64,000 nucleotides of DNA from Acidimicrobiia bacterium (GTDB lineage Bacteria; Actinomycetota; Acidimicrobiia; Spongiisociales; ZC4RG35): assembly GCA_040902845.1 (NCBI GenBank), contig JBBDWM010000034.1, positions 147,001 to 211,000 on the forward strand. The letters are read 5' to 3'. Shown one piece after another: positions 5,604-55,098 of this stretch (its first letter is position 1; each line of letters opens with the position of its first letter). A model generated the notes under the pieces. That model was not told the DNA's origin, ran no database searches, and worked only from the letters and a program-made list of their open reading frames with translations. Made by a program: the position numbers and the translations under genes.

Positions 5604-6481
5604 GATTCATCCTCCGCTTCGTAATGCCTGGCCTCGGGTCCCAGTGGGGCCCGGATTCCCCTGTGCTCCCAATCACCCCCGAGGGCGGTGGAGATCACCT
5701 CTTCGGATTCACTGGGTTGGGCGCCGACGTCGGTGCGGATCGGGAACCGGCCCTCGACGATGGTGTTGGTCAATGCCCCCAACCCTTCCACTTCAACGGT
5801 TACCACATCCCCCGGCACCACCGGCCGGGAGCCTGCCGGCGTCCCGCTCAGGATCACGTCACCCGGGAGCAAGGTGATGGTGCGGGCCAGGTCCGCCACC
5901 AGGTAGGCCATGTCCCACTCCATCTCGGAGGTGGTGGCCTCCTGTCTCACTTGGTTGTTGACCAGAGTCCTGATTGTCTTGTTCCGAAAGTCCCAGTCGT
6001 CCACCAGACCCGGTCCCAGCGGGCAAAGGGTGTCCGATCCTTTGACTCGAAGCATCGACCCTGCATCGGTGTCGCGAAAATCGTGGAGCCCGTAGTCGTT
6101 GGCGATGGTGTAGCCCGCGATGTAGACGTCGGCCTCGTCGGGGGAAACGTCCTTGCAGGTCTCTCCGATGACAATGGCGACCTCGCCCTCATAGTTGAGG
6201 TACTTGCACCCGATCGGCCGGACCACCTCGCCAAGATGCCAGTTGAGCGCGGTGGTGGGCTTCTGGAAGTAGGTCGGTGCGGGGGGAAGGCGGGTCATGA
6301 ACTCCTCGACCCGGCTCCGGTAGTTGAGATGGACGGCGAGGATCTTCGAGGGTTCGGCGGGTGGGAGATGATCTGCGGTCCGAGCATCGAATCTTCGGCC
6401 GTCATCTGCCACCAGTTCGTCACCGTCGCGTCGAACGTCGACTGGGCTCCCATCGACCAGGATTCTCCGGTGCTCGCCCAT
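5600..6481 (-). CDS. fumarylacetoacetate hydrolase (FAH) family protein (HpcE/HpaG-like hydratase/decarboxylase/isomerase family)
   Basis: FAH-fold motifs KILAVHLNYRSRVEE...GEVAIVIGE...GTPAGS...GDVV. ATGA overlap with the downstream amidotransferase gene. Confidence 0.85.
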   Translation of the reverse strand: MGEHRRILVDGSPVDVRRDGDELVADDGRRFDARTADHLPPAEPSKILAVHLNYRSRVEEFMTRLPPAPTYFQKPTTALNWHLGEVVRPIGCKYLNYEGEVAIVIGETCKDVSPDEADVYIAGYTIANDYGLHDFRDTDAGSMLRVKGSDTLCPLGPGLVDDWDFRNKTIRTLVNNQVRQEATTSEMEWDMAYLVADLARTITLLPGDVILSGTPAGSRPVVPGDVVTVEVEGLGALTNTIVEGRFPIRTDVGAQPSESEEVISTALGGDWEHRGIRAPLGPEARHYEAEDES

Positions 6482-7799
6482 GAGTCACACGGTAACCAGG
6501 GGTGCAGGCCGATTATGTTTGGTTCCTAACGATCTCATGTCGCTCAACATTCTCCATCAGGACCTCGGCGACACGCATGCCGACCTCGCCTCTCATGACA
6601 CCTTCGTCCGGTGCGTCCCTCACGCCACGTTTGCCCGGATGCGCCAGGAGGAACCGGTGGCCTGGGTCGAGGAGAGCGACGGGTCCGGTTTCTGGGCCGT
6701 CACCCGACACGCCGACGTGGAGACGGTCAGTCGCGACTTCGCCAGGTTCACCGCGTCACGGGGGATCCGGATCGAGGACATGGCTCCCGACGAGCTCGAG
6801 GCCAGGCGGACCATGATGGAGTTCGACCCTCCCGAGCACGCCCGTCTCCGCAGGCTGGTCCAACCCGGCTTCACCCCAAAGGTGGTTTCCACCTACGAAG
6901 AGGCGTTCCGGCGGCTGGCCGGGCATGTGCTCGACGAGGTGCTGCCTTTGGGCGAGTTCGATTTCGTCACCGAGATCGCTCGTGAGCTGCCGATTCGCCT
7001 GCTCTGCCGCCTGCTGGGCGTTCCTGAGTCAGATGCCTCCCAACTGGTGGCCTGGGGCGATCAGATGATCTCCAACGCCGACCCGGAGTACACCCCGGTC
7101 GTCATCGACAAAGACGACTCAGAGGAATATCGGCTGCTCCCCTTCCGCTCCCCGGCGGCCATCGAAGTGTTCCGCTATGCCGAGGAGATGGCCGTTGAGC
7201 GGAGGGCCAGCCCTGAGGACGACATCATTACCACCCTGCTCCACGCCGAGCCGGACGGCGAGCCATTGACCGACCTGGAGTTCAAGAATTTCTTCACCTT
7301 GATGATGGTTGCGGGCAATGAGACCACCCGGCACACCATCAGTCACGGGCTCGTCTTCCTCACCAACCATCCCGAGCAACTGGAGGAACTTCATGCCGAT
7401 CCCGCAGGGCGCTCGGTCTCGGCAACCGAGGAGATCCTGAGGGCGTCAGCGGTGACGATGCACTTTCGCCGCACCGCGACGGAAGACACCGAATTGGGAG
7501 GGGTTGCCATCGAGAAGGGTGACCGGGTCGTGGTCTGGTACCCGTCGGCCAACTATGACGAAGAGGTCTTTGAAGACCCGTTCCGCTTCGATATCAGGCG
7601 GACACCCAACGACCACCTGACTTTCGGGGCGGGACGTCATGTCTGTCTGGGAGCATCGCTGGCCCGCCTTGAAGTCCGGGTGGTGTTCGAGGAGCTGTTG
7701 AAACGGGTGGGAAGCATCGAGATCATCGGCGAGCCGGACCGGCTTCGCTCCAACTTCATCAACGGGATCAAGCACCTGCCGGTCCGGATGAGCGCCTAG
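6480..7799 (+). CDS. cytochrome P450
   Basis: Heme-binding loop FGAGRHVCLGASLARLE, EXXR (EILR) and AGNETT I-helix motif. An alternative ATG at 6537 directly follows the shared 19-bp motif. Confidence 0.9.
   Translation: MSHTVTRGAGRLCLVPNDLMSLNILHQDLGDTHADLASHDTFVRCVPHATFARMRQEEPVAWVEESDGSGFWAVTRHADVETVSRDFARFTASRGIRIEDMAPDELEARRTMMEFDPPEHARLRRLVQPGFTPKVVSTYEEAFRRLAGHVLDEVLPLGEFDFVTEIARELPIRLLCRLLGVPESDASQLVAWGDQMISNADPEYTPVVIDKDDSEEYRLLPFRSPAAIEVFRYAEEMAVERRASPEDDIITTLLHAEPDGEPLTDLEFKNFFTLMMVAGNETTRHTISHGLVFLTNHPEQLEELHADPAGRSVSATEEILRASAVTMHFRRTATEDTELGGVAIEKGDRVVVWYPSANYDEEVFEDPFRFDIRRTPNDHLTFGAGRHVCLGASLARLEVRVVFEELLKRVGSIEIIGEPDRLRSNFINGIKHLPVRMSA
6518..6536 (+). promoter_or_regulatory. 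candidate operator TTTGGTTCCTAACGATCTC (copy A), immediately 5' of the ATG at 6537
   Basis: 17/19 identical to the copy at 19921-19939. Contains the dyad TT(T/A)GG-tt-CCTAA. Confidence 0.35.
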
Positions 7800-12889: not shown

Positions 12890-14340
12890 CAGCAATCCTG
12901 GAAGAACTCAGAGCCGGCGGCATGACCGGGCTCTTTATCGGCGGGGAGTGGGTCGAGGGCGCCGGAGAGCTGCCGGTGGTCGATCCCGCCTCCGAGGAGG
13001 TCCTGGTCGGGGTGGGCCTGGCCGAGGCTTCCCATGCCGACGATGCGGTGGCGGCCGCCTTCGACGCATCGAAGTCCTGGGCGCAGACCCCGCCACGGGA
13101 ACGGGGTGAAGTCCTGCGCCGCACCTTCGAGGCGATGCGAGCCAGGGAAGAGGACCTCGCTGAGCTGATCGTCCTCGAGAACGGCAAGGCATTCGCGGAT
13201 GCGCTCGGCGAGGTTCGCTACGCCGCCGAGTTCTTCCGGTGGTTCTCCGAAGAGGCATCCCGAGTCTCGGGGGAGCTGCGGACGGCCCCCGGCGGCGACA
13301 AGCGGATCATGACCTTCCGCCAGCCGGTCGGGGTTTCGGTAATGGTGACCCCGTGGAACTTCCCGGCGGCGATGGCGACCAGGAAACTGGGCCCGGCTTT
13401 GGCTGCCGGCTGCACAACAATCGTCAAGCCCGCATCCGACGCCCCGCTGACGACCCTTGCCATCGTCCATCTCATGGAGCAGGCGGGCCTCCCGCCAGGG
13501 GTGGTCAATGTGGTGGTTGCCCGGGGATCCTCGGGTGTCATCGAAAACGTCCTCCGCGACCCCAGAGTTCGCAAGCTCTCGTTCACCGGCTCAACCGAGG
13601 TCGGCCGGACGCTGATGAACGTCGCCTCCGATCAGGTGCTTCGGGTGTCGATGGAATTGGGCGGCAACGCGCCTTTCCTCGTTTTCGATGACGCCGATCT
13701 GAATGCAGCCCTCGAAGGTGCGATGGTGGCCAAGATGCGCAACGCCGGCGAGGCGTGCACCGCTGCCAACCGGTTCCTGGTCCACGCCGCGGTTGCAGAT
13801 GAGTTCACCTCGATGCTTGCGGGAGCCATGGGCTCGCTGAAGATGGGACCCGGGATCGACCGCTCCAATCAGGTTGGCCCGATGATCAACGAACGCTCGC
13901 GCGATGACATCGCCAAATTGGTCCAGGAAGCCGTCGACGACGGCGCCAGGGTGGTGGTGGGGGCCTCGGTCCCCGACCGCCGTGGCTACTTCTACGAGCC
14001 GACTGTGCTGTCCGGTGTTGCCGCAGATTCTGAGATCCTCCAGCAGGAGATCTTCGGACCGGTGGCGCCGGTGGTGACCTTCGAATCCGACGAGGAGGCA
14101 ATCGCCCTGGCTAACGACACCGTCTACGGGCTGGCCGCCTATCTGTACAGCGGTGATCTGGCCCGCGGCCTGCGGGCCGCGGAGGCCATCGAGTCGGGAA
14201 TGGTGGGCGTCAATCGAGGCTTAGTCTCGGACCCGGCCGCCCCGTTCGGGGGTGTCAAGCACTCCGGCATCGGGCGGGAAGGCTCCCACGAGGGGATGGA
14301 CGAATACCTGGAAACGAAATACGTGGCGGTGAGCTGGTAG
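12886..14340 (+). CDS. NAD(P)-dependent aldehyde dehydrogenase (succinate-semialdehyde dehydrogenase-like)
   Basis: ALDH motifs VTPWNFP, ELGGNAPFLVFDDADL (catalytic Glu), GEACTAANRFLVH (catalytic Cys). ATGA overlap with the ADC-like gene. Confidence 0.9.
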   Translation: MTAILEELRAGGMTGLFIGGEWVEGAGELPVVDPASEEVLVGVGLAEASHADDAVAAAFDASKSWAQTPPRERGEVLRRTFEAMRAREEDLAELIVLENGKAFADALGEVRYAAEFFRWFSEEASRVSGELRTAPGGDKRIMTFRQPVGVSVMVTPWNFPAAMATRKLGPALAAGCTTIVKPASDAPLTTLAIVHLMEQAGLPPGVVNVVVARGSSGVIENVLRDPRVRKLSFTGSTEVGRTLMNVASDQVLRVSMELGGNAPFLVFDDADLNAALEGAMVAKMRNAGEACTAANRFLVHAAVADEFTSMLAGAMGSLKMGPGIDRSNQVGPMINERSRDDIAKLVQEAVDDGARVVVGASVPDRRGYFYEPTVLSGVAADSEILQQEIFGPVAPVVTFESDEEAIALANDTVYGLAAYLYSGDLARGLRAAEAIESGMVGVNRGLVSDPAAPFGGVKHSGIGREGSHEGMDEYLETKYVAVSW

Positions 14341-14394
14341 GGCTAGGGGGGTCGGTGAGTCTGGCGTCGGCAGCGGTCAGCTGATGGCATTCGC

Positions 14395-14673
14395 TTACTC
14401 GTCTGGAGTGAAGAAGTCACCATCCCAGTTCATGGGTTCGCCCTCTGCGTATTGCCACATCGAGACGAGCGAGAGGCCGGGAGTCGTCGTGTGGAACTTC
14501 TCGATGACGAGACAGTCGTAAGCCGCCATCCCCGGCTTCACGACCAGGTTAAGACTCCCAACTGGACGGATCTCGCCCTGAGGAAACACTGGCTTAACGA
14601 CGAAGGTCTTACCCTCGATCCGCTGAGGTTCCATTCCTCCATCGTAGGTAGAGAAGGCTACGTGACCACGCAT
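14395..14673 (-). CDS. hypothetical protein (92 aa)
   Basis: ORF downstream of and co-directional with the HNH/DUF222 gene. No recognisable motif. Confidence 0.35.
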   Translation of the reverse strand: MRGHVAFSTYDGGMEPQRIEGKTFVVKPVFPQGEIRPVGSLNLVVKPGMAAYDCLVIEKFHTTTPGLSLVSMWQYAEGEPMNWDGDFFTPDE

Positions 14674-14748
14674 GTCGTCAAACTGGTAGCGAGTTGGGTT
14701 GACGAGCCAGCACGAGCGACCGTAACTCGGAACGGCTGAGCGAGTGCG

Positions 14749-15114
14749 TTATCCGGCCCACGAAGCGCTGGTGAACCGGGCCGTCCTGAAGGCCTCGGGC
14801 ATCCCGACTCGTTCGCGCAGGATTGTGACGACCAGAAGCAAATCGGAAGCGCGGTTGTAGTCCTCGAAGGCTTCGGGGGAGATCACGTCTCGCATCGTCG
14901 CAACCACTGGATCATCGCCCAGGAAAGACCGGGCCTCATTGAGGACCGAGTCGATAGTCGGGATAGCGATTCCGCTTACATCGAGGTCGGGTTCTCGTAG
15001 AGTCATGCTCTCCAATTGCCTTTGGAGAACCCCCAACGTTTGCCAGACCCGTGCGTGGGTGTCATTGCTCATCCGCGTCAGGATAACAGGTAAAGGGAAC
15101 AGGTGTTCGATCAA
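14749..15114 (-). CDS. hypothetical protein (121 aa)
   Basis: ORF between the HNH/DUF222 gene and the 92-aa ORF on the same strand. No recognisable motif. Confidence 0.35.
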   Translation of the reverse strand: MIEHLFPLPVILTRMSNDTHARVWQTLGVLQRQLESMTLREPDLDVSGIAIPTIDSVLNEARSFLGDDPVVATMRDVISPEAFEDYNRASDLLLVVTILRERVGMPEAFRTARFTSASWAG

Positions 15115-15201: not shown

Positions 15202-16524
15202 TTACGGAGGCTCCGGTTCGACGGTGTAGGTGTGGCCGAGGGGGCTGGTCCACTGGTAGATGCCGGGTGCGAGTCGTTGCAGTTTCCATCCTGGTTTGTG
15301 TTTGAGTCGGTGGTCGTGGCGGCAGAGTGGTGCGAGGTTGTCGGGCTCGGTGGGTCCGCCTTGGGAGTAGGCGATGGTGTGGTCGATGTCACACTCCGAT
15401 GCCGGGTTCCGGCATCCAGGGAAGGCACAGGTTGGGTTCCTTGCTTCTACCTGGCGTTTTTGGTGGGTGGTGGGTCGTCTTCGGGTGGTTCCGGTCCAGA
15501 TCGGCTCCCCACCTTCGGTGACGGTGACCCGGTGTTCAGCTTTTGATTGGTTTTCGGCGACTTGACGGGCGATGTCGGCGATGACCGGTCCGTACCCTTT
15601 GAGATCTCCGGGATGGTCGTTGAGGCCGGCCAGAGTGGTGAGTTCGACGCTGATGTCGACCATTCCCCGGCCTTTTCCTTGCTTCAAATGGCGGCCGTTG
15701 AGAAGGTCCAAGTAGACGTCGGCTCGGACCTGGTCCATGCTCCGGGGGTCGTCTGCTCCCTTGGCGGCTTTGGCGAGATTGTTGATCCGTCGCATCGCAG
15801 CTTGAGCGTGTGCTGCGGGCAGATCAAGGCCGATCAGGTTGGTGGTGCCGTGATCATTGGGTTGGAGCACCACCCGACGTTCCAGGATCGCCTCCTCATA
15901 CCGGACCTGTGCCGCGTCCGGGTCGATGAGGATGACCAGTTTGCGGATTCGGGCTCCCAACTGGCCGGTCGTCTGCTGTGAAGCACGTTCCAGGGCGGCT
16001 TCGGCCACCCGTCTTGCGGTGTCCTCGTCGAGGTGACAGGTTTCATTGCCGATCACCCGGGCCTTTGCCAGGTCGATAACTCCGTGTCGGAGGGCTGCTC
16101 CGACTTGGGGGAGACGTCGGATCAGTTCCCAGGCCAGACCAAGGTGGTAGTCGGCGGAACGTCTGGTGAGGGTGAGCGCCGCTCGAATCTCTGATGCGGC
16201 TATCTCGTCGACATCTGAAGTCCACTCTCCGGGAAAGACCTTGGTCTCCGCCTCGTGGATTGCGGTGATGTCGGCGTAGAACTCGGCCTGGTCGTATCCG
16301 ATCTGACGGGATCGGGCCTGCAAGACGACCACCCGGTCATAACCCGAAATCTGGTTCCGGTCGATCGAAGCCAACACTCCAGCCAACATCGGACCGGGTG
16401 GCATTTCGGCCAAACCTTGGGGAATCCCTCCACCCTCGAACATACGTTCGACCATGATTGGAACATACAACCCACCCCCGACAGATTCCATACCCCTGTT
16501 CCGACAATTTGGGATTATTTCCAA
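15202..16524 (-). CDS. HNH endonuclease with an N-terminal DUF222 domain (REP13E12-type selfish element protein)
   Basis: C-terminal HNH motif CAFPGCRNPASECDIDHTIAYSQGGPTEPDNLAPLCRHDHRLKH. The N-terminal helical region resembles DUF222, the standard actinobacterial HNH-DUF222 architecture. Confidence 0.8.
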   Translation of the reverse strand: MEIIPNCRNRGMESVGGGLYVPIMVERMFEGGGIPQGLAEMPPGPMLAGVLASIDRNQISGYDRVVVLQARSRQIGYDQAEFYADITAIHEAETKVFPGEWTSDVDEIAASEIRAALTLTRRSADYHLGLAWELIRRLPQVGAALRHGVIDLAKARVIGNETCHLDEDTARRVAEAALERASQQTTGQLGARIRKLVILIDPDAAQVRYEEAILERRVVLQPNDHGTTNLIGLDLPAAHAQAAMRRINNLAKAAKGADDPRSMDQVRADVYLDLLNGRHLKQGKGRGMVDISVELTTLAGLNDHPGDLKGYGPVIADIARQVAENQSKAEHRVTVTEGGEPIWTGTTRRRPTTHQKRQVEARNPTCAFPGCRNPASECDIDHTIAYSQGGPTEPDNLAPLCRHDHRLKHKPGWKLQRLAPGIYQWTSPLGHTYTVEPEPP

Positions 16525-47781: not shown

Positions 47782-48939
47782 CTACGCCTCTTCGGCCAGC
47801 ATCTCGTAGTCGCGGATCGTTACTTCCAGATAGGCGATCGCCCGCTCGTACCCGGTTTGCGCTTGATTCGTGGTGTAGGACAGAACTCTGGTCAGCCAGA
47901 GGCGAAAGGCGAGTGACTCCCAGGCCGGGTCTCCCAACCGGAACCCGGTGAGAAGGAACCGGAGGGTGTCGAGCCAGGTCCCGGCATCCATGAATGACAC
48001 CTCCGGCCGATCGATAACAGCCACGATGCCCTCCCTGGCCCGCACTGGCAGATCGGCGGCGAGTTGGGCCTCCGCGTCGGTCCAGCCACTCGTGAGCAAG
48101 GGCAAGGTGGAGGCCAGGTCGTAGGCCACGGTGCGCTTCAGATCGACTGGCACCGGGGCAGCGGGGTCGCTCCCATGGCGGGCCCCAGGCTCGGGGCCTT
48201 CCAGACCGGCCAGCCGGCAAACGGCATCGAGGCACTCCAGCACCATCGGGCGCAACTCATCCAACGACCCGTAGAGGGTGTGCCTCTTTCCGTCCGCCAC
48301 GAGATGTTCGTAGAGCCCGACTCCCATCACCGACGTGGCAAAGGTGATCACGGTGTCGATCCCCCAATCGGAGCGCGACCTGACCAATTGGGAGTCGGCA
48401 AGGGATTCCAGCGCCACCCGGGTGAGCAGCAGTTCCCCCCCCAGCGGTTGGTTGAGTCTGGGGAGGAAGGTCCCCGGGAAGAGCAAGGCGAGCCCAGGCC
48501 TCGTGATCATCCAGGTGATCATGGCGTCGGTGGCCGCCCGCGGGAAGCGGTGACGGACGACGCCATAACCGCCATCGGCGGCCTCCTCGGCGCCATCGAT
48601 CCAGGTTGCGCCGAAGTTGGTGATGTCGGCGTCGTAGAAATGGACCCGCTCCCTGCCCTCACCGGCGGCGCGCCTGATGGCGGTGTTCATGGCGTCCCCT
48701 TTCCCCGGTCGGAGATCCCCGATTCGCTCCTGGGGGATGACCAACACCGGTTTGGCGAGCTGCGCCGAGGTCCCTGCGGCCCCGGCTTCGACCTTGCGGG
48801 TCGTGGAGCTATCTTCGGAGGCCACCGCCCACACCTCGTCGATTCGGGGATGGGAGGCGGCGGTCCTCAGGTTGGCAATCACCAGGGCAGGATCCTCGTC
48901 CTTGAATGGGAAGACCGCCAGGCTCACCGAGACCACCAT
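47782..48939 (-). CDS. glycosyltransferase, mannosyl-3-phosphoglycerate synthase-like (GT55-like), tentative
   Basis: VHFYDADITNFGATWIDG resembles the GT55 MpgS motif GFIDADNYFPGAVW. KGDAMNTAI resembles GKAEGMILAL. Start set at the Met of MVVSVSLAVFPFKDED. Confidence 0.45.
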   Translation of the reverse strand: MVVSVSLAVFPFKDEDPALVIANLRTAASHPRIDEVWAVASEDSSTTRKVEAGAAGTSAQLAKPVLVIPQERIGDLRPGKGDAMNTAIRRAAGEGRERVHFYDADITNFGATWIDGAEEAADGGYGVVRHRFPRAATDAMITWMITRPGLALLFPGTFLPRLNQPLGGELLLTRVALESLADSQLVRSRSDWGIDTVITFATSVMGVGLYEHLVADGKRHTLYGSLDELRPMVLECLDAVCRLAGLEGPEPGARHGSDPAAPVPVDLKRTVAYDLASTLPLLTSGWTDAEAQLAADLPVRAREGIVAVIDRPEVSFMDAGTWLDTLRFLLTGFRLGDPAWESLAFRLWLTRVLSYTTNQAQTGYERAIAYLEVTIRDYEMLAEEA

Positions 48940-48983
48940 AGGAGACCGATTCCTGTCCCAGCGCGGGTCTACTCTCGCCTCCG

Positions 48984-50654
48984 ATGGATGAAATGGTCGG
49001 CCGGGTCCTAGGGACCAGAGACGCCACCCCACTCGAGTTCTGGATCGGGATCGATGAGGGGCAATACGTCCAACTCGACGACGTCGTCGCCCTCGAGCGG
49101 GTGCTCCCAACCGGTGAGATGGTTCGAATGTTCGGGATGGTCGGCCAGGTGGTCGCCCGGCACGAGGGTGCCCGCTTCGACTCCGACGTGTTTCTCATCG
49201 AGGACGGGATCCTTCCCGCGGAGGTCGTAGAAACCGCCCAGGTCACGACCACCCGCTTCGAGCCGGAGGTCTTCGTACCACCGCTCCCCGGCCAACCGGT
49301 GCGCATCGCCGTGGGAGACGAGCGTGATCAGGCTCTCTTCTTCGATCAGATGGAGCAGAAGTTCCCGGTGGGGCTGGCGCGCAACAAGGAGCCGCTGTGG
49401 GTCAACTTCGAGTTCATCAACGGCGACCGGGGTGCACATGTCAACATCTCAGGTATCTCCGGGGTGGCCACCAAGACGAGTTACGCCACCTTCCTGCTCC
49501 ACTCCTTGTTCACCTCGGGTGTCCTCGGCAAGGCGGTGGTCAACACCAAAGCCCTGATCTTCAACGTGAAGGGCGAGGATCTGCTCCATCTCGACCGGGT
49601 CAACACCCGTCTCGATGACCATCACCGTCTCGGCTACGCCCATCTCGGCCTTCCCTCGACTCCCTTCGACTCGGTGGGGATCTTTGCCCCTCCCCGAATC
49701 GACGATCAAAGGGCGACGGCAGATGTTGCATCCCGGTCCGACGTGACCTCCTTTTTCTGGACGCTTCACGAGTTCTGTGTAGACGAGCTCCTCCCATTCC
49801 TCTTCGCCGACGCCGAAGACGACCGTGCCCAATACACGACCGTGGTCTACAACGTGATGGCCCAATTGCGTCAGGCCGAGGCCACGGAAGCTGGTGCCGC
49901 GGTGGTCGACGGGGTCAAGGTGCGCACCTTTCGGGAGTTCGTCGATCTGGTGACCGACCGGGTCCAAAGCGAGGAGCATCGGTTCCTGTGGGCCGGCCCT
50001 GCCATCGGCATCGGCACCATCAACGCCTTTGTGCGGAGGTTGCAGGCGTCGGTTCGCCATCTGGAGCGAATGATCCGGGCCGATGTTCCCGACCCCGAGC
50101 GCCACAAGATACGGCTCGACCCCAATCAGGTGACGGTGGTCGACCTCCACAATCTCAACGACCGGGCGAAGCGCTTCGTCGTGGGGGTGACGTTGAAGCG
50201 CGCCTTCGACGAGAAGGAGCGAGCCGGCCAATCCGATGAGCTCTTATTGGTGGTGCTGGACGAGTTGAACAAATACGCCCCGCGCGAGGGGACCAGCCCG
50301 ATCAAAGAAGTCCTGCTCGATGTGGCTGAGCGCGGGCGCTCGCTCGGCGTCATCCTGATTGGTGCCCAACAGACAGCCTCCGAGGTGGAGCGTCGGATCA
50401 TCGCCAATTCCTCGATCCGGGTCGTAGGGCGTCTCGATGCGGCCGAGGCCTCCCGGGAGGAGTACGGCTTTCTTCCGTCGGTGCACCGGCAGCGAGCGAC
50501 GATTCTGAAGCCGGGGACCATGATCCTGAGCCAGCCCGAGCTGCCGGTGCCGTTGGTGTTGGAGTTCCCATTTCCGGCATGGGCCACCAGGGCGTCCGAG
50601 GCAGTGCCGGTGCCCGCATTCACCGGCCCGGACGACCCTTTCGAGGGCTTGTAG
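48984..50654 (+). CDS. herA: HerA-like FtsK/HerA-superfamily ATPase (HAS-barrel N-terminus; deviant Walker A)
   Basis: N-terminal MVGRVLGTRD...YVQLDD...GMVGQVV HAS-barrel-like pattern. P-loop position reads ISGISGVATKTSY (non-canonical). Walker B LLLVVLDELNKYAP. First gene of the operon. Confidence 0.55.
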   Translation: MDEMVGRVLGTRDATPLEFWIGIDEGQYVQLDDVVALERVLPTGEMVRMFGMVGQVVARHEGARFDSDVFLIEDGILPAEVVETAQVTTTRFEPEVFVPPLPGQPVRIAVGDERDQALFFDQMEQKFPVGLARNKEPLWVNFEFINGDRGAHVNISGISGVATKTSYATFLLHSLFTSGVLGKAVVNTKALIFNVKGEDLLHLDRVNTRLDDHHRLGYAHLGLPSTPFDSVGIFAPPRIDDQRATADVASRSDVTSFFWTLHEFCVDELLPFLFADAEDDRAQYTTVVYNVMAQLRQAEATEAGAAVVDGVKVRTFREFVDLVTDRVQSEEHRFLWAGPAIGIGTINAFVRRLQASVRHLERMIRADVPDPERHKIRLDPNQVTVVDLHNLNDRAKRFVVGVTLKRAFDEKERAGQSDELLLVVLDELNKYAPREGTSPIKEVLLDVAERGRSLGVILIGAQQTASEVERRIIANSSIRVVGRLDAAEASREEYGFLPSVHRQRATILKPGTMILSQPELPVPLVLEFPFPAWATRASEAVPVPAFTGPDDPFEGL

Positions 50655-50711
50655 CCGCCCGGAGCGACCGGCTCCCCGAATCTGTCCCACCCGCTCTTTA
50701 CGATCGACCCT

Positions 50712-51845
50712 GTGACAGTGAAGATCCTCCACACCTCCGATTGGCATGTCGGACGACGGATCCGCGGCCGGGACCGGTCTGAGGAGCACCGCTCGGTTCT
50801 GGCCGAGTTGGTGGCGATTGCCGCCGGGGCCGAAGTCCAGCTCGTGGTCGTGGCCGGCGACGTGTTCGACGCGTCGGCTCCGACACCCGCGGCCGAGCAG
50901 ATCGTATGGAGAGGCCTTCTCGACCTGGCCGAAGTGGCGCCGGTGGTGGTCATCGCCGGCAACCACGACAACCCGGCTCGACTGGAAGCGGTATCCCCGC
51001 TGCTCGAGATGGGCCGGATCGTCGCCTGTTCCGAACCGTCGGCACCGGACCGGGGCGGAGTGGCCTATTACGAGGAAATGGGCATCAAGATCGCAATGCT
51101 CCCATTTATCTCCCAGCGTGGGATTGTGCGCGCCGAGCAGATAATGGGCTCCGATCCCGATCAGCACGCCGGAGCGTACGAGGAGCGGATCAAGAGACTG
51201 ATCGACGCCCTCACCGCGGGGATGACCACCGACACCGTCAACCTGCTCGCCGGCCACCTCACGGTGCATAACGCCCAAGAAGGTGGGGGAGAGCGGCAGG
51301 CCCACATCTTCGGGTATGCAGTGCCCACCTCGGTGTTTCCCGGACACCTCTCCCACGTGGCGCTGGGACATCTCCATCGCCAGCAGAAGGTGCCCCATGG
51401 GGGGTCGGTCTGGTACTCGGGGTCACCCCTGCAACTCGACTTCGGCGAGGTTGACGACCGGAAGGGGGCGCTCTTGATCGAGGCGGTTCCCGGGCTCCCT
51501 TCCAAGGTGACGACCGTGCCGCTTACTTCGGGTCGGCGTCTGGTCACCCTCACGGGATCGGTCGATCAGGTTCTGGCTCGGGCCGACGAGGTCGAAGACG
51601 CGTATGTGAAGGTCGTGCTCACCGAAAAAGCCCGAGTCGGGCTGGCAGACACAGTGCGAATGGCAATTCCCGGGGCGGTCGACGTGACCCTTCAGATGCC
51701 GACTCCCACGCGGCCCCGCGCGGTGGAGAGTCGCCGCGCCATCTCACCCACCGACGCTTTCCACAGGTACCTCGAGGACAACAACGTCGGCGACGACCGG
51801 GTTGAGGCCCTCTTCGCCGAGTTGTTCGACGAGGCCACCACATGA
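50712..51845 (+). CDS. sbcD: Mre11/SbcD family DNA repair nuclease
   Basis: Phosphoesterase motifs I ILHTSDWHVG, II VVVAGDVFD, III IAGNHD, plus GHLHR. 377 aa. Confidence 0.85.
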   Translation: MTVKILHTSDWHVGRRIRGRDRSEEHRSVLAELVAIAAGAEVQLVVVAGDVFDASAPTPAAEQIVWRGLLDLAEVAPVVVIAGNHDNPARLEAVSPLLEMGRIVACSEPSAPDRGGVAYYEEMGIKIAMLPFISQRGIVRAEQIMGSDPDQHAGAYEERIKRLIDALTAGMTTDTVNLLAGHLTVHNAQEGGGERQAHIFGYAVPTSVFPGHLSHVALGHLHRQQKVPHGGSVWYSGSPLQLDFGEVDDRKGALLIEAVPGLPSKVTTVPLTSGRRLVTLTGSVDQVLARADEVEDAYVKVVLTEKARVGLADTVRMAIPGAVDVTLQMPTPTRPRAVESRRAISPTDAFHRYLEDNNVGDDRVEALFAELFDEATT

Positions 51846-54199
51846 GACCGCTGAGCATCACCCTGGAAGGGTTCTCGGCCTATCGGGCGTCCAGCAGCGT
51901 CAGCTTTGCCGAAGTCGACTTCTTCTCACTCAGCGGACCGACGGGCTCGGGCAAGTCGAGTCTGATCGATGCCATGATCTTCGCCCTCTACGGGCGGGTT
52001 CCCCGGCTCGGCGGTTCTCAGGTGGCGCCGGTCATCTCCGCCGGAGCCGACCGGGCGCGAGTTTCCGTCGAGTTCGCCGTTGGAGACCAGGTCTACACGG
52101 TGGCGAGGCAGGTGTTGCGCACCAAGACCGGGGCCAATACCAATGAGGCGCGTCTCGAACGAGGCGCCGAGTCGTTGGCCTCGGGTGCCGACGACGTGAC
52201 CAAGGCAGTCGAGGATCTGCTCGGGCTGCGGTACGAGGACTTCACCAGGACCGTGGTGCTGCCCCAGGGTGAGTTCGCCAGGTTTCTCACTGCAACCAAG
52301 TCCGATCGTCAGGCCCTCCTGCGCAAGCTTCTCGACCTCGACATCTACGCAGAGCTCCGGGTGTTGGCGGGGGTCAGGGAAAAAGAGGCGAAGTACCGGG
52401 CAGATCAGGCTCGGACCAGAAGGGACGCACTCGAAATCCCGGACGAGCGGGCCCTGACCGTTGCCCGCGACCGATTGGGGCAGCTCGACGAGATGGCCGA
52501 AAGGATCGGGGACCTCGAAGCAACCGTCACCGGTCTGGAGGGCGCCGCCGGCGCCGCGGTTGAGGTGGTGTCCCGTTTGGAGGGCAACCTGGGGCGTCTC
52601 GACTCGATCACACCTCCCGAAAACCTCGAATTGCTCGACGAGACAATCAATCGGGCCCGAGATGCCTTCGACGGGCTCGAGAAGCGGCGCGATCAGTTGA
52701 AGGCCGAATTCGACCTGGCCGAGGTGGGTTTGGAGGAGCTTCCTTCGACCGAATCGCTCGAGACTGATGCCCGGACCTACTTGCGGCTCACCGAACTCGA
52801 GGCGCGATTCGCAGAGCTCGACATCCCCGGGGCCGAGGCCCGAGTCACGGAAGCAACCATGGCCCTGCACGCTGTCACCACCAATCACGGGCAGGCGACC
52901 TTGGAACTGGCGGCGGCCCGCGTCACCCACTCCGCCCACGCCTTGCGTGCGACCCTGGTGGTGGGTGAGCCGTGCCCGGTTTGTGATCTGCCAGTGGCCA
53001 AGGTTCCCGACGGCGGCCGTGATCCCGATCTCACGCGGCTCGAGGAAGCGGAACGAGAGGCTTCTACTAGCGTGAACACGGCTGGCGTCGGTCTCGATGC
53101 GGCCCGCGCCGAGGGTGCCAGGATCGAGGCCATCCGCATCGAGTTGGAGACCCAACGCGGCTCCCTCATCAGCGATCTCGAATCCGCCCCACCGGTGGAG
53201 ACCCTGCAAGACCAGATGACAGCGGTGGAGGCGGCGAAGGCGCTCATCGTCGAGAAACAGCGTGATCTCGGAGTCGTCGATGGGCTCCTCTCGACCACCC
53301 GCGGCGAGTTGGAGACGGCGGCCGAGGCCTTTCGATCCATCGGTCGCGATCTGATGGCGGCCCGGGAGACGGTGGCAGATCTCCAGCCGCCCTTGCCCGA
53401 AAGCGACGACAACCTCGTTCGGTGGAAGGAGCTGATGGATTGGGTGGGTCAGGCTCGTCTCGACACCAGGGCCCGTCTTGACGAGGCGGGAACCGCGGCC
53501 CGGGTGGCGGCCTCCGATGCGGTGAAGGCCCGCGAGCGCCTGGTAACCGAGCTCGAGAGCATCGGGATCGAGGCAATCGCTCCGTTTGCGGTTCAAGTGG
53601 CGAGGGAGCAGGAACAGGCCAAGCAGACGGTCAAGGAGATGGAGACGGTCATCGGCCTGGCCGCAGAATTGGCCACGGTCGTCGAGGAGGCGGAGACCAG
53701 CACCGCCATCGCCCACTCCCTTGCCGGCCACCTTCGAGCCGATGGCTTCGAGCGCTGGCTGATGGTTGGGGCCGTTACCGACCTGGTCGCCGGGGCCAAC
53801 GGTCTCCTCGCCCAACTGTCGGGTGGAGGCTTCTCGCTGTACGCCGACGACGACGGGGGGTTTGCCATTGTCGACCACCGCAACGCCGACGAAACTCGAT
53901 CCGTCTCCACGCTTTCCGGAGGCGAGACCTTTCTGGTGGCCCTCGCTCTTGCGCTCTCTCTGGCGGAGACGTTGTCCACCGGGGCGGCCTCCGGCTTGGA
54001 TGCGATCTTCCTCGACGAGGGATTCGGCACCCTCGACGAGGAGTCACTTGACACAGTGGCCGCGGTGCTCGAGGAGTTGACCGGTCGAGGCCTCATGGTC
54101 GGGATCGTCACCCACGTCAAGGAGTTGGCTGCAAGGGCGACGGTCCGGCTCGAGGTTCGACGTGAGCCCACCGGGTCTGTGGTCGAGGTGGCGTCGTGA
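51842..54199 (+). CDS. sbcC: Rad50/SbcC family SMC-like ATPase with a CPVC zinc hook
   Basis: Walker A SLSGPTGSGKSSLIDAM. Coiled-coil with VVGEPCPVCDLPV (CXXC hook). Signature STLSGGETFLVALAL. Walker B IFLDEGFGTLD. ATGA overlap with sbcD. Confidence 0.85.
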   Translation: MRPLSITLEGFSAYRASSSVSFAEVDFFSLSGPTGSGKSSLIDAMIFALYGRVPRLGGSQVAPVISAGADRARVSVEFAVGDQVYTVARQVLRTKTGANTNEARLERGAESLASGADDVTKAVEDLLGLRYEDFTRTVVLPQGEFARFLTATKSDRQALLRKLLDLDIYAELRVLAGVREKEAKYRADQARTRRDALEIPDERALTVARDRLGQLDEMAERIGDLEATVTGLEGAAGAAVEVVSRLEGNLGRLDSITPPENLELLDETINRARDAFDGLEKRRDQLKAEFDLAEVGLEELPSTESLETDARTYLRLTELEARFAELDIPGAEARVTEATMALHAVTTNHGQATLELAAARVTHSAHALRATLVVGEPCPVCDLPVAKVPDGGRDPDLTRLEEAEREASTSVNTAGVGLDAARAEGARIEAIRIELETQRGSLISDLESAPPVETLQDQMTAVEAAKALIVEKQRDLGVVDGLLSTTRGELETAAEAFRSIGRDLMAARETVADLQPPLPESDDNLVRWKELMDWVGQARLDTRARLDEAGTAARVAASDAVKARERLVTELESIGIEAIAPFAVQVAREQEQAKQTVKEMETVIGLAAELATVVEEAETSTAIAHSLAGHLRADGFERWLMVGAVTDLVAGANGLLAQLSGGGFSLYADDDGGFAIVDHRNADETRSVSTLSGGETFLVALALALSLAETLSTGAASGLDAIFLDEGFGTLDEESLDTVAAVLEELTGRGLMVGIVTHVKELAARATVRLEVRREPTGSVVEVAS

Positions 54200-55098
54200 A
54201 GTTCACAGTCGAGGCTTGGGACCCGGACTACGGGGCTCCGTCCGATGCCGATTTGGCCGATTCCACCGACAAGGTGGACCCCTCGGTCGAGATCAGCCCC
54301 GACCAGTGGCGCCCGTTGTTGCCGGAATGCGCTCCCGCTGGGGACATCCTCTTCGTGGATGGGGTACGACGGGTGGACGCCAACCTATGGATCGATAGAG
54401 AAGGCCTCTTCCCCGGGTTCGGGCTCGCTGCCACTTTCGCCGCCGGCGCCGTTCGGTGCAACGGTGACGCCAAGGTGGTTGCTTCCAGCGTGCGCCGGGG
54501 GATCTTCACTTCGGGCCCTGCGGAATCGATCGACACCAAGGTGGGCCGTTACGAGGTGATGAGCACCAAAGGGTCGACTCCCGAGGAGCTCTGGTTGGGT
54601 ATCCAGGAACGAATGGGGGACCTCGAGGGGGAAGTGGCAGGCGAACACGCCGATGCTGCGCTGGTGGTGGTCGACGGACCGCTCTCTCATCGTCGTCACC
54701 TTGAGGGCGCGGTGGGGTACATCAAGACCCAGCATGTGCAATACCTGCCGGACGATCTGCGGGCAACCCTGGGGACGCTTCCGGTTGGGTATCGCACCCC
54801 GCTGTTCCTCACCACCACTTCCTGGAGCCGCTTCTCGTGGTATCTGCGTCTGGCCAACGGCGCCGGCCCCGCGGGGGGCCTGGTCCGATGTGAGGTGAAG
54901 GCGGATATGAATGTGGCCGACGCCGCCCGTCTCGCTCATCTGGTGTCGGCCACGCTGCCCCGGTACGCCTCAGCGAGACACAAGGATCCCAGGGCGCCCC
55001 AGAATCTCTACCCGATCGGTGGTCTGGAGCGGGAGCTGCGCCGACGGCTGGGGGACCGCGACCTGGTGATCAGGGCCCTTCGGCTGGCAGCGGCTTGA
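54196..55098 (+). CDS. nurA: NurA-like 5'-3' nuclease (tentative)
   Basis: Two hhhDG motifs (DILFVDGVRRVD and AALVVVDGPLSHR) resembling NurA catalytic motifs I and III. GTGA overlap with the rad50 stop. Last gene of the operon. Confidence 0.5.
   Translation: MKFTVEAWDPDYGAPSDADLADSTDKVDPSVEISPDQWRPLLPECAPAGDILFVDGVRRVDANLWIDREGLFPGFGLAATFAAGAVRCNGDAKVVASSVRRGIFTSGPAESIDTKVGRYEVMSTKGSTPEELWLGIQERMGDLEGEVAGEHADAALVVVDGPLSHRRHLEGAVGYIKTQHVQYLPDDLRATLGTLPVGYRTPLFLTTTSWSRFSWYLRLANGAGPAGGLVRCEVKADMNVADAARLAHLVSATLPRYASARHKDPRAPQNLYPIGGLERELRRRLGDRDLVIRALRLAAA

Follow-up and report, generated by a model that had tools for sequence, protein, structure and literature searches.

The quartet of herA, mre11, rad50 as well as nurA forms an essential operon in Sulfolobus (PMC4351679). 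The same four functions, in the same order herA-mre11-rad50-nurA (PMC4351679, PMC3326311), are found in a 64,000 nucleotide (nt) stretch of DNA from an Acidimicrobiia bacterium (assembly GCA_040902845.1, contig JBBDWM010000034.1, positions 147,001 to 211,000), here termed the window. This raises the question of whether the bacterial cluster has come from archaea, serves in defence against foreign DNA, consists of two repair modules that are only neighbours, or is a repair system of bacteria in its own right. The last answer is favoured here with considerable confidence: the cluster appears to be a chromosomal, vertically maintained, bacterial-type four-component module for double-strand-break end processing that is inducible by DNA damage. 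The analysis establishes what the four genes encode, that the catalytic residues are intact, that the four-gene unit is conserved in multiple bacterial phyla, and that the promoter motifs exist and are conserved.

The four genes and their products

The four open reading frames (ORFs) are on the plus strand. The first, herA (48984..50654, ATG start), encodes a bacterial-type HerA hexameric double-stranded DNA translocase/ATPase of 556 amino acids (aa). It is followed by sbcD (50712..51845, GTG start), which encodes the Mre11-family nuclease subunit of 377 aa, and by sbcC (51842..54199, ATG start), whose 785 aa product is a Rad50-family ABC ATPase with a presumed coiled coil and a central CPVC zinc hook. 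The last gene, nurA (54196..55098, GTG start), encodes a bacterial-type 5′-3′ nuclease of 300 aa with an RNase H-like fold. A gap of 57 nt (50655-50711) separates herA and sbcD, the sbcC start overlaps the sbcD stop (ATGA), and the nurA start overlaps the sbcC stop (GTGA). An earlier reading of the DNA letters alone, the original prediction, was correct in these coordinates and junctions, in the four gene identities and their tight coupling, and in the motifs it quoted, which are all present in the translations with every catalytic motif intact. Long antisense ORFs inside the cluster genes (e.g. 51926-53878, minus strand) are taken as artefacts of the high guanine-plus-cytosine (GC) content.

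The identity of HerA comes from solved-structure matches, since Pfam and NCBIfam give no useful result for this protein. Deinococcus radiodurans HerA (PDB 7f6d_B) is matched full length, at query residues 4-540 in two blocks (E = 2e-143, 482 bits), and about half of the residues are identical in the aligned blocks. The motifs GISGVATKT (residue 157) and LLLVVLDE (420) are present. Residues K164/T165, D199, D426/E427, R434 and R491 align with D. radiodurans K175/T176, D220, D487/E488, R495 and R552, which have been shown by mutagenesis or structure to be important (PMC9960219), and K164, T165, D426 and E427 are invariant across 25 diverse homologues. The aligned residues comprise the Lys and Thr of Walker A, the ASCE catalytic acid, the Asp-Glu pair of Walker B and pore arginines required for translocation. 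There are more than 8000 HerA homologues, and the closest are Acidimicrobiia proteins with 83-97% identity. Pfam models, which the original prediction proposed as a check on all four genes, do match the products of sbcD, sbcC and nurA, but HerA matches no Pfam family at E ≤ 0.01. The sole NCBIfam match named HerA is the anti-phage HerA model (0.0024, 16.7 bits versus a cut-off of 850). Precomputed Pfam annotation is empty for all the listed HerA homologues as well, and the absence of a profile match looks like a gap in the profiles, not evidence against homology.

SbcD exceeds the cut-off of the NCBIfam model TIGR00619 sbcd (1.9e-46, 158.9 bits, cut-off 77.65) and matches the Pfam families Metallophos (44.4) and SbcD_C (24.8 versus a cut-off of 24.4). 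Its phosphoesterase motifs are DWH (DxH, residue 10), GDVFD (GDxxD, 49), GNHD (83), a candidate GH (181) and GHLH (219). SbcC is above the cut-offs for Pfam AAA_23, SMC_N and SbcC_Walker_B. Its best NCBIfam model is TIGR00618 sbcc (4.7e-76, 256.6 bits); the score is below the cut-off of 478.5, and since the protein falls ∼260 aa short of the model's length, the match is limited to the head lobes. The motifs comprise Walker A GPTGSGKS (32), the Q-loop LPQG (140), the hook CPVC in mid-protein (378), the signature LSGGE (691) and DEGFGTLD (725), with the Walker B/D-loop at 721-732 and the H-loop at 756. The best solved structures for both proteins are those of Escherichia coli SbcCD (PDB 6S6V; SbcD 2.7e-27, SbcC 2.6e-43), which share the motifs and the CxxC hook. 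E. coli SbcC differs in having 1048 aa, in contrast to the presumably shorter coiled coil of the 785 aa protein, and in having no HerA/NurA partners.

NurA passes the Pfam model PF09376 narrowly (24.6 bits versus a cut-off of 21, residues 51-271). Among PDB sequences it matches D. radiodurans NurA (7f6d_H, 6.5e-19) and Thermotoga TM1739 (2e-8). An AlphaFold model of the protein (predicted local distance difference test score 70, predicted template modelling score 0.72) has its best fold matches in 7f6d_G (3.7e-15) and 1zup_A (2.9e-14); the archaeal NurA structures 3tal and 9x1n are weaker matches. The motifs FVDG (53) and VVDGP (158) are present, and W8, D55, K177 and R266 align with the essential D. 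radiodurans residues W8, D53, K201 and R309 and do not vary among 18 homologues. The essential set includes the catalytic Asp and residues that position the phosphate and the base. For HerA and NurA taken together, the nearest homologues are Acidimicrobiia proteins with 71-97% identity, which places the organism in the Acidimicrobiia (Actinomycetota).

Thus all the mutagenised functional residues of both proteins of the D. radiodurans NurA-HerA complex (PDB 7F6D/7WRW; PMC9960219) are conserved in the window. The two systems differ in gene arrangement: D. radiodurans nurA-herA is a two-gene operon unlinked to sbcCD, whereas in the window nurA is downstream of sbcC and herA upstream of sbcD. They also differ in NurA length, 300 aa in the window versus 369 residues in the deposited D. 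radiodurans chain, which apparently includes a tag of ∼20 residues.

Bacterial or archaeal affinity

The original prediction perceived an archaeal flavour in the cluster and offered two origins, a horizontally acquired machine or an uncharacterized bacterial variant. The second is the closer to the evidence. By comparison of hidden Markov model and PDB scores, all four proteins are of the bacterial type. SbcD scores 159 bits on the bacterial model TIGR00619 versus 55 on Mre11_Sulfo; no archaeal Mre11 model exceeds 55 bits, and these models cover only the N-terminal ∼95 residues (4-96 to 4-99). SbcC scores 257 bits on the bacterial TIGR00618 versus 95 on Rad50_Halo, the maximum for archaeal Rad50 models. 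PDB sequence searches with HerA and NurA found no archaeal HerA or NurA chain at E ≤ 1.

Two features of SbcC, the CxxC hook and the length of 785 aa, had been read as archaeal marks. They are not archaeal signatures, because the hook is to our knowledge universal in the Rad50/SbcC family and the SbcC matches of related loci span ∼2.3-3.3 kb, or roughly 750-1090 aa.

A recent acquisition of a Sulfolobus-type operon by a bacterium would explain the identity of the gene order with that listed for Sulfolobus (PMC4351679), and earlier literature does term bacterial HerA an "archaeal" gene (PMC5448004). This origin is contradicted by the bacterial type of all four proteins, by the absence of archaeal HerA or NurA from the PDB matches, and by the fact that the 80 best genomic relatives, selected among no fewer than 594 loci with a match, are all bacterial. 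In addition, the GC content is flat at 0.65-0.66 across the cluster and equal to that of neighbouring stretches. The flanks consist of housekeeping genes: upstream is mannosylglycerate synthase, and the downstream side has EamA, a pyridoxamine-oxidase-like gene, GpsA and GcvP. This arrangement is conserved in close Acidimicrobiia relatives, from which it follows that the cluster has a stable chromosomal position in this lineage. Accordingly, an archaeal import is highly improbable.

The bacterial and archaeal clusters nevertheless invite comparison. The archaeal operon is UV (ultraviolet light)-inducible in archaea, and the same division of labour is proposed for it, with Mre11-Rad50 in end recognition and HerA-NurA in long-range resection. 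It differs in that its HerA and NurA are too distant from the bacterial-type proteins to score by sequence, and archaeal NurA dimerizes and binds HerA differently, through hydrophobic and not ionic contacts (PMC9960219). A further difference is the regulation predicted below for the cluster of the window, which is of the actinobacterial PafBC type.

Distribution and gene order in bacteria

A profile of 25 diverse HerA sequences detected at least 594 loci in a collection of one genome per species, and the best 80 were analysed; individual loci are cited below by L number. The order herA-sbcD-sbcC-nurA on one strand is complete in 59 of the 80, a further 14 are consistent with it up to the contig end, and seven differ. 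It had been assumed that bacterial SbcCD stands alone, with HerA and NurA encoded elsewhere. For this HerA family that premise does not hold, and linkage to sbcCD is the rule.

Carriers are found in the Acidimicrobiia, Nitriliruptorales, Micromonospora (cultured strains), Gammaproteobacteria, Dehalococcoidia, Saprospiraceae, Acidobacteriota and Gemmatimonadota/Longimicrobiales. Complete chromosomes with the four-gene order include those of a gammaproteobacterium (L025), a Dehalococcoidia bacterium (L035) and Longimicrobiales (L064, L071), and the gammaproteobacterial carriers include a complete 5.8-Mb Azotimanducaceae chromosome. Remoter HerA relatives, with 33-48% identity, display either the same order (L088, L089), the permuted order nurA-herA-sbcD-sbcC (L082/83, L086/87 and a cyanobacterial plasmid, L091) or herA alone (L081, L084).

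Identity to the proteins of the window rises and falls in step among the four (Spearman 0.62-0.88, n = 25). Conservation is greatest for HerA, at 62-84% identity between classes and phyla, and lowest for SbcC (33-47%). HerA copies from outside the Actinomycetota are 64-69% identical to that of the window, compared with 62% for the Micromonosporaceae copy, and this closer similarity of the non-actinomycete proteins points to transfer of the cluster among bacterial phyla.

The junctions of the cluster are not equally open to insertion. Unrelated genes are found at the herA/sbcD junction in 10 of the 59 complete loci, but at either of the remaining junctions in just one of 59. Among those that separate herA from sbcD are a Mutator-family transposase (L054, 13221-14900), a pyridine-nucleotide disulphide oxidoreductase (L002, 11660-13078) and a DsbA-like thioredoxin (L012, 12042-13418); these were considered as extra components and rejected, as they are mutually unrelated. 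A PrsW-protease/EndoU-nuclease fusion is inserted between sbcD and sbcC in L027 (5262-7346).

Several loci depart from the common pattern. In a few Acidimicrobiia loci, L018 (7880-17880) and L059, none of sbcD, sbcC and nurA follows herA over a downstream distance of as much as 10 kb, and a partial second copy of herA is present in L059. L011 has an AlkZ-like DNA glycosylase gene after herA (6073-7245). The metagenomic contigs L086/L087, of the nurA-herA-sbcD-sbcC order, have an additional 392 aa SMC_N/AAA_23/AAA_15 ATPase gene directly after sbcC on the same strand (13598-14776), which could be a fifth component in that lineage. A conserved fifth gene was also sought in the flanks of related loci, and none was found beyond the close Acidimicrobiia relatives.

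In the literature, the only mention found of bacterial HerA/NurA linked to SbcCD is one paragraph on Oceanithermus profundus (PMC5448004); older papers may hold earlier mentions. In O. profundus the order is nurA-hepA(herA)-sbcD-sbcC. The cluster resembles that of the window in joining bacterial HerA/NurA to bacterial SbcD/SbcC, but the order is permuted with nurA first, the phylum is different, and the arrangement was mentioned in passing and never studied (PMC5448004). Public annotation under-labels herA and nurA and is patchy: the RefSeq-derived/PLSDB record of a Streptomyces plasmid (L090, see below) labels HerA an "ATP-binding protein" and NurA a "hypothetical protein", whereas NurA is correctly named in some NCBI records of metagenome-assembled genomes.

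Predicted damage promoters and transcription units

Two sites that resemble PafBC/RecA-NDp-type promoters are found on the plus strand of the cluster. The first, P1 (TGTCCC-N10-TACTCT, 48954..48975), lies within the 44 nt upstream of herA and ends 8 nt before its ATG. The second, P2 (TGTCCC-N10-TACGAT, 50683..50704), is inside the 57-nt gap and ends 7 nt before the sbcD GTG. Both sites fit the published consensus sequences: that of PafBC is tGTCgg(N10)tA(N3)T, described together with its mechanism (PMC8635444), and that of RecA-NDp is tTGTCRgtg-8nt-TannnT (PMC5656591). The mycobacterial promoters have the same 22-nt spacing, with TGTC at -26, N12, TAnnnT at -10 and no -35 element (PMC8635444, PMC5656591). 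As with the sites predicted here, the mycobacterial PafBC motif precedes DNA-repair genes. One difference is at motif positions 5-6, which are CC or AC here versus GG in the mycobacterial PafBC consensus. A second is that herA and nurA are not reported as members of the PafBC regulon, because the model mycobacteria are not known to have them.

The case for promoters is made from motif positions and cross-locus conservation. Within 120 nt upstream, the strict motif TGTC-N12-TAnnnT precedes herA in 31 of 78 loci and sbcD in 15 of 70; it was found upstream of sbcC in none of 61 loci and of nurA in none of 57. Its background frequency, at 70 matches in 2.59 Mb, is ∼0.004 per 150 nt. P1- and P2-type sites are conserved across actinobacterial relatives, and most sites in related loci end 6-8 nt before an ATG or GTG. 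The motif is retained directly before sbcD in six loci (L002, L012, L017, L038, L054, L067) in which foreign genes or extra sequence split herA from sbcD. In all clearly non-Actinomycetota loci (Gammaproteobacteria, Saprospiraceae, Dehalococcoidia, Gemmatimonadota/Longimicrobiales and Acidobacteriota) the strict motif is absent within 150 nt upstream of herA. From these motifs, the actinobacterial cluster is probably switched on by DNA damage.

The spacing of 6-8 nt between motif and start codon predicts leaderless transcripts. With the motif before both herA and sbcD, and insertions clustered between the two genes, two transcription units are indicated, and the arrangement predicts two co-regulated leaderless transcripts, one of herA alone and one of sbcD-sbcC-nurA. 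The single strict four-gene operon envisaged in the original prediction is thus probably not the case, given the second promoter-like site in the 57-nt gap. No sigma-70 promoter was found within 47.5-56.5 kb of the window, and the terminator-like sites in that region are all on the wrong strand or intragenic. No Rfam family is matched within 47-57 kb.

The strict motif has three matches in the window, which end 8, 7 and 6 nt before the starts of herA, sbcD and a DUF222/HNH endonuclease gene. The DUF222/HNH gene (minus strand, 417 aa), which together with its motif occupies 15202-16483, has its start at 16455 and the third motif at 16483-16462. A perfect actinobacterial LexA box, TCGAACATACGTTCGA (16436-16451), is located within its first codons. 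This is the sole perfect box in the window, and there is no LexA box near herA or sbcD. Dual control by PafBC and LexA has been described for some mycobacterial damage genes, and the two motifs predict such control for the DUF222/HNH gene.

Three loci, L020, L055 and L063, have short tandem repeats ∼100 nt upstream of herA, where others carry the promoter motif. The repeat unit is GCCCCCG[AG]GCAACAC in L020 and CTGACCTGA in L055.

Repair or defence

HerA-plus-nuclease modules also occur in phage defence, and the original prediction raised this as a possibility. Under such an explanation phage or plasmid DNA would be destroyed by the joint action of HerA translocase, nuclease and SMC-like ATPase, as in TdpAB, SIR2-HerA/DUF4297-HerA or Lamassu/Wadjet-like systems. 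PADLOC does return matches, which are weak and partial: HerA models at 1.7e-6 or worse and mad8 at 1e-9, and for SbcC mad3 (4.5e-27) and LmuB (2e-21). The HerA matches are limited to the generic C-terminal ATPase core, in contrast to the full-length match at 2e-143 to the repair-type D. radiodurans protein, and NurA has no PADLOC match. TdpB (8wfd_G, 1.3e-4) is the fourth-best fold match to the NurA model. Like the cluster of the window, TdpAB and other defence systems of the HerA-nuclease kind pair a HerA-like hexameric translocase with a NurA-like nuclease, but the similarity is remote, as judged from this fold match and from PADLOC HerA scores of 1e-6 or worse. In addition, TdpAB-type systems are without SbcCD and are located in defence islands or on mobile elements.

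Mobile copies of the cluster do exist. The linear plasmid NZ_CP134205.1 of Streptomyces sp. BB1-1-1 (L090, 413748-429397) bears a four-gene cluster that adjoins genes for an ImmA/IrrE metallopeptidase and TIGR02678/TIGR02680/DUF2397 proteins. These neighbours look like a Wadjet-type plasmid-defence set. The identities that suggest transfer between phyla would also suit a defence system, and a role against foreign DNA has been the subject of speculation for archaeal HerA-NurA (PMC3326311). Against this, only six records in a set of 72,556 from plasmids contain the HerA family, and one of the six is an 11.85-Mb replicon; phages give just two weak matches. The cluster in the window is in no defence island but among the housekeeping genes described above, which are syntenic in relatives. 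HerA is unusually conserved, unlike fast-evolving defence genes, and the predicted promoters are of the DNA-damage class. A function in defence is therefore quite unlikely, and the repair module is preferred.

Proposed function

The mechanism of the proposed module is drawn by homology from the D. radiodurans and archaeal systems (PMC9960219, PMC3326311, PMC4351679). By analogy with their biochemistry, an SbcC2-SbcD2 complex (Rad50/Mre11) would recognize and clean DNA ends. The HerA hexamer would dock by its HAS-barrel face onto a NurA dimer and pump duplex DNA into NurA, which would split the strands and degrade the 5′ strand, so that RecA is provided with a 3′ tail. HerA-NurA performs resection in D. 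radiodurans (PMC9960219), and a HerA6:NurA2 architecture with 5′-strand resection is presumed to be common to both bacteria. Expression would be from the two actinobacterial promoters of the PafBC class (RecA-independent), before herA and before sbcD, as leaderless mRNAs, and sbcD, sbcC and nurA would be translationally coupled through their overlapping stop and start codons.

Do the two sub-complexes act together? That nurA is on the sbcDC transcript, with its partner herA expressed separately, argues that they do, and we infer that SbcCD and HerA-NurA cooperate. Even in archaea, the coupling of Mre11-Rad50 to HerA-NurA is described as unclear (PMC8708640). HerA is a binding partner of archaeal Mre11 (PMC2288612). 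The most serious rival is that two independent modules are neighbours, with SbcCD acting on hairpins or protein-blocked ends and HerA-NurA serving, for example, in FtsK-like pumping or proliferation. The predicted promoter of its own for herA and the gathering of insertions at the herA/sbcD junction are compatible with this explanation, as are the unlinked HerA-NurA of Deinococcus and Thermus (PMC5448004, PMC8708640), the decayed sbcDC of locus L079 described below and the proliferation defects of D. radiodurans mutants (PMC5448004). Yet nurA is parted from herA by sbcDC and translationally coupled to sbcC, so that the partner of HerA would be made from the SbcCD transcript. Furthermore, the four-gene linkage recurs in two permutations in at least eight phylum- or class-level groups, the same regulatory motif is found at both promoters, and the divergence of the four proteins co-varies. 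Independent modules are thus considered unlikely.

Several observations weigh against a damage-induced module of cooperating parts. One is found in the complete Acidimicrobiales chromosome OY730440.1 (L079, 11744-13089), from which one internal deletion has apparently removed the bulk of sbcD together with the 5′ half of sbcC. What is left is a 90 aa N-terminal stub of SbcD and the C-terminal 358 aa of SbcC, with herA and nurA intact on either side; retention of herA and nurA after the loss of sbcCD means that the pairing of SbcCD with HerA-NurA is not obligatory. HerA-NurA also works without linked sbcCD in D. radiodurans and Thermus (PMC5448004, PMC8708640). The D. radiodurans nurA/herA phenotypes, as given in the part of the literature consulted, are modest, with defective proliferation and ∼10-fold lower intermolecular recombination (PMC5448004), and the same source, reporting Cheng et al. 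2015, gives no apparent effect on radioresistance (PMC5448004). At the HerA-NurA interface, only the first of the acidic D. radiodurans HerA contacts D78, E80 and D81 is conserved (D68), and E80 and D81 have no conserved counterparts; other acidic residues near D68 are E73 and D74. With respect to regulation, the three motif matches in the window compare with 1.4 expected, which is not significant. That this genome encodes PafBC is an assumption, made because the protein is nearly universal in the phylum and has been reported from almost all actinobacterial species (PMC8635444). Induction by DNA damage, dependence on PafBC and a physical cooperation between the two complexes are inferences.

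A more far-reaching proposal is put forward tentatively. The module, wired to PafBC through two leaderless promoters and with SbcCD and HerA-NurA in physical cooperation as is supposed for archaea, may represent a distinct bacterial end-resection pathway beside RecBCD/AddAB/AdnAB and RecJ-RecQ, both in the Actinomycetota and in several further phyla that received it by transfer.

Neighbouring genes

The divergent neighbour of herA (47785-48939, minus strand) had been described as MpgS-like. This is wrong, as matches to Pfam MGS_GT (2e-86) and MGS_C identify it as the single-step mannosylglycerate synthase. Its start is only 44 nt from that of herA, and the gene is kept beside herA in the closest Acidimicrobiia relatives (L001, L002, L004-L010, L013).

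Significance

Each protein family described here is already known, and so is the four-gene repair cluster in archaea; in bacteria the cluster has been little described. What is added here is how widely the cluster is distributed among bacteria and the prediction that PafBC controls it. Bacterial HerA-NurA has been studied only where it is unlinked to SbcCD, but the linked four-gene form is common in bacteria, and some of its carriers are cultured actinomycetes, among them Micromonospora haikouensis DSM 45626 and Nonomuraea gerenzanensis. The cluster is not a domain-crossing oddity. If the predicted promoters are true, herA, sbcDC and nurA would join the actinobacterial damage regulon, a regulatory hypothesis that is directly testable. 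If the proposed cooperation is true as well, Micromonospora, Nonomuraea or the Streptomyces plasmid would provide a genetically tractable mesophilic bacterial model for the hand-over of DNA ends from Mre11-Rad50 to HerA-NurA.

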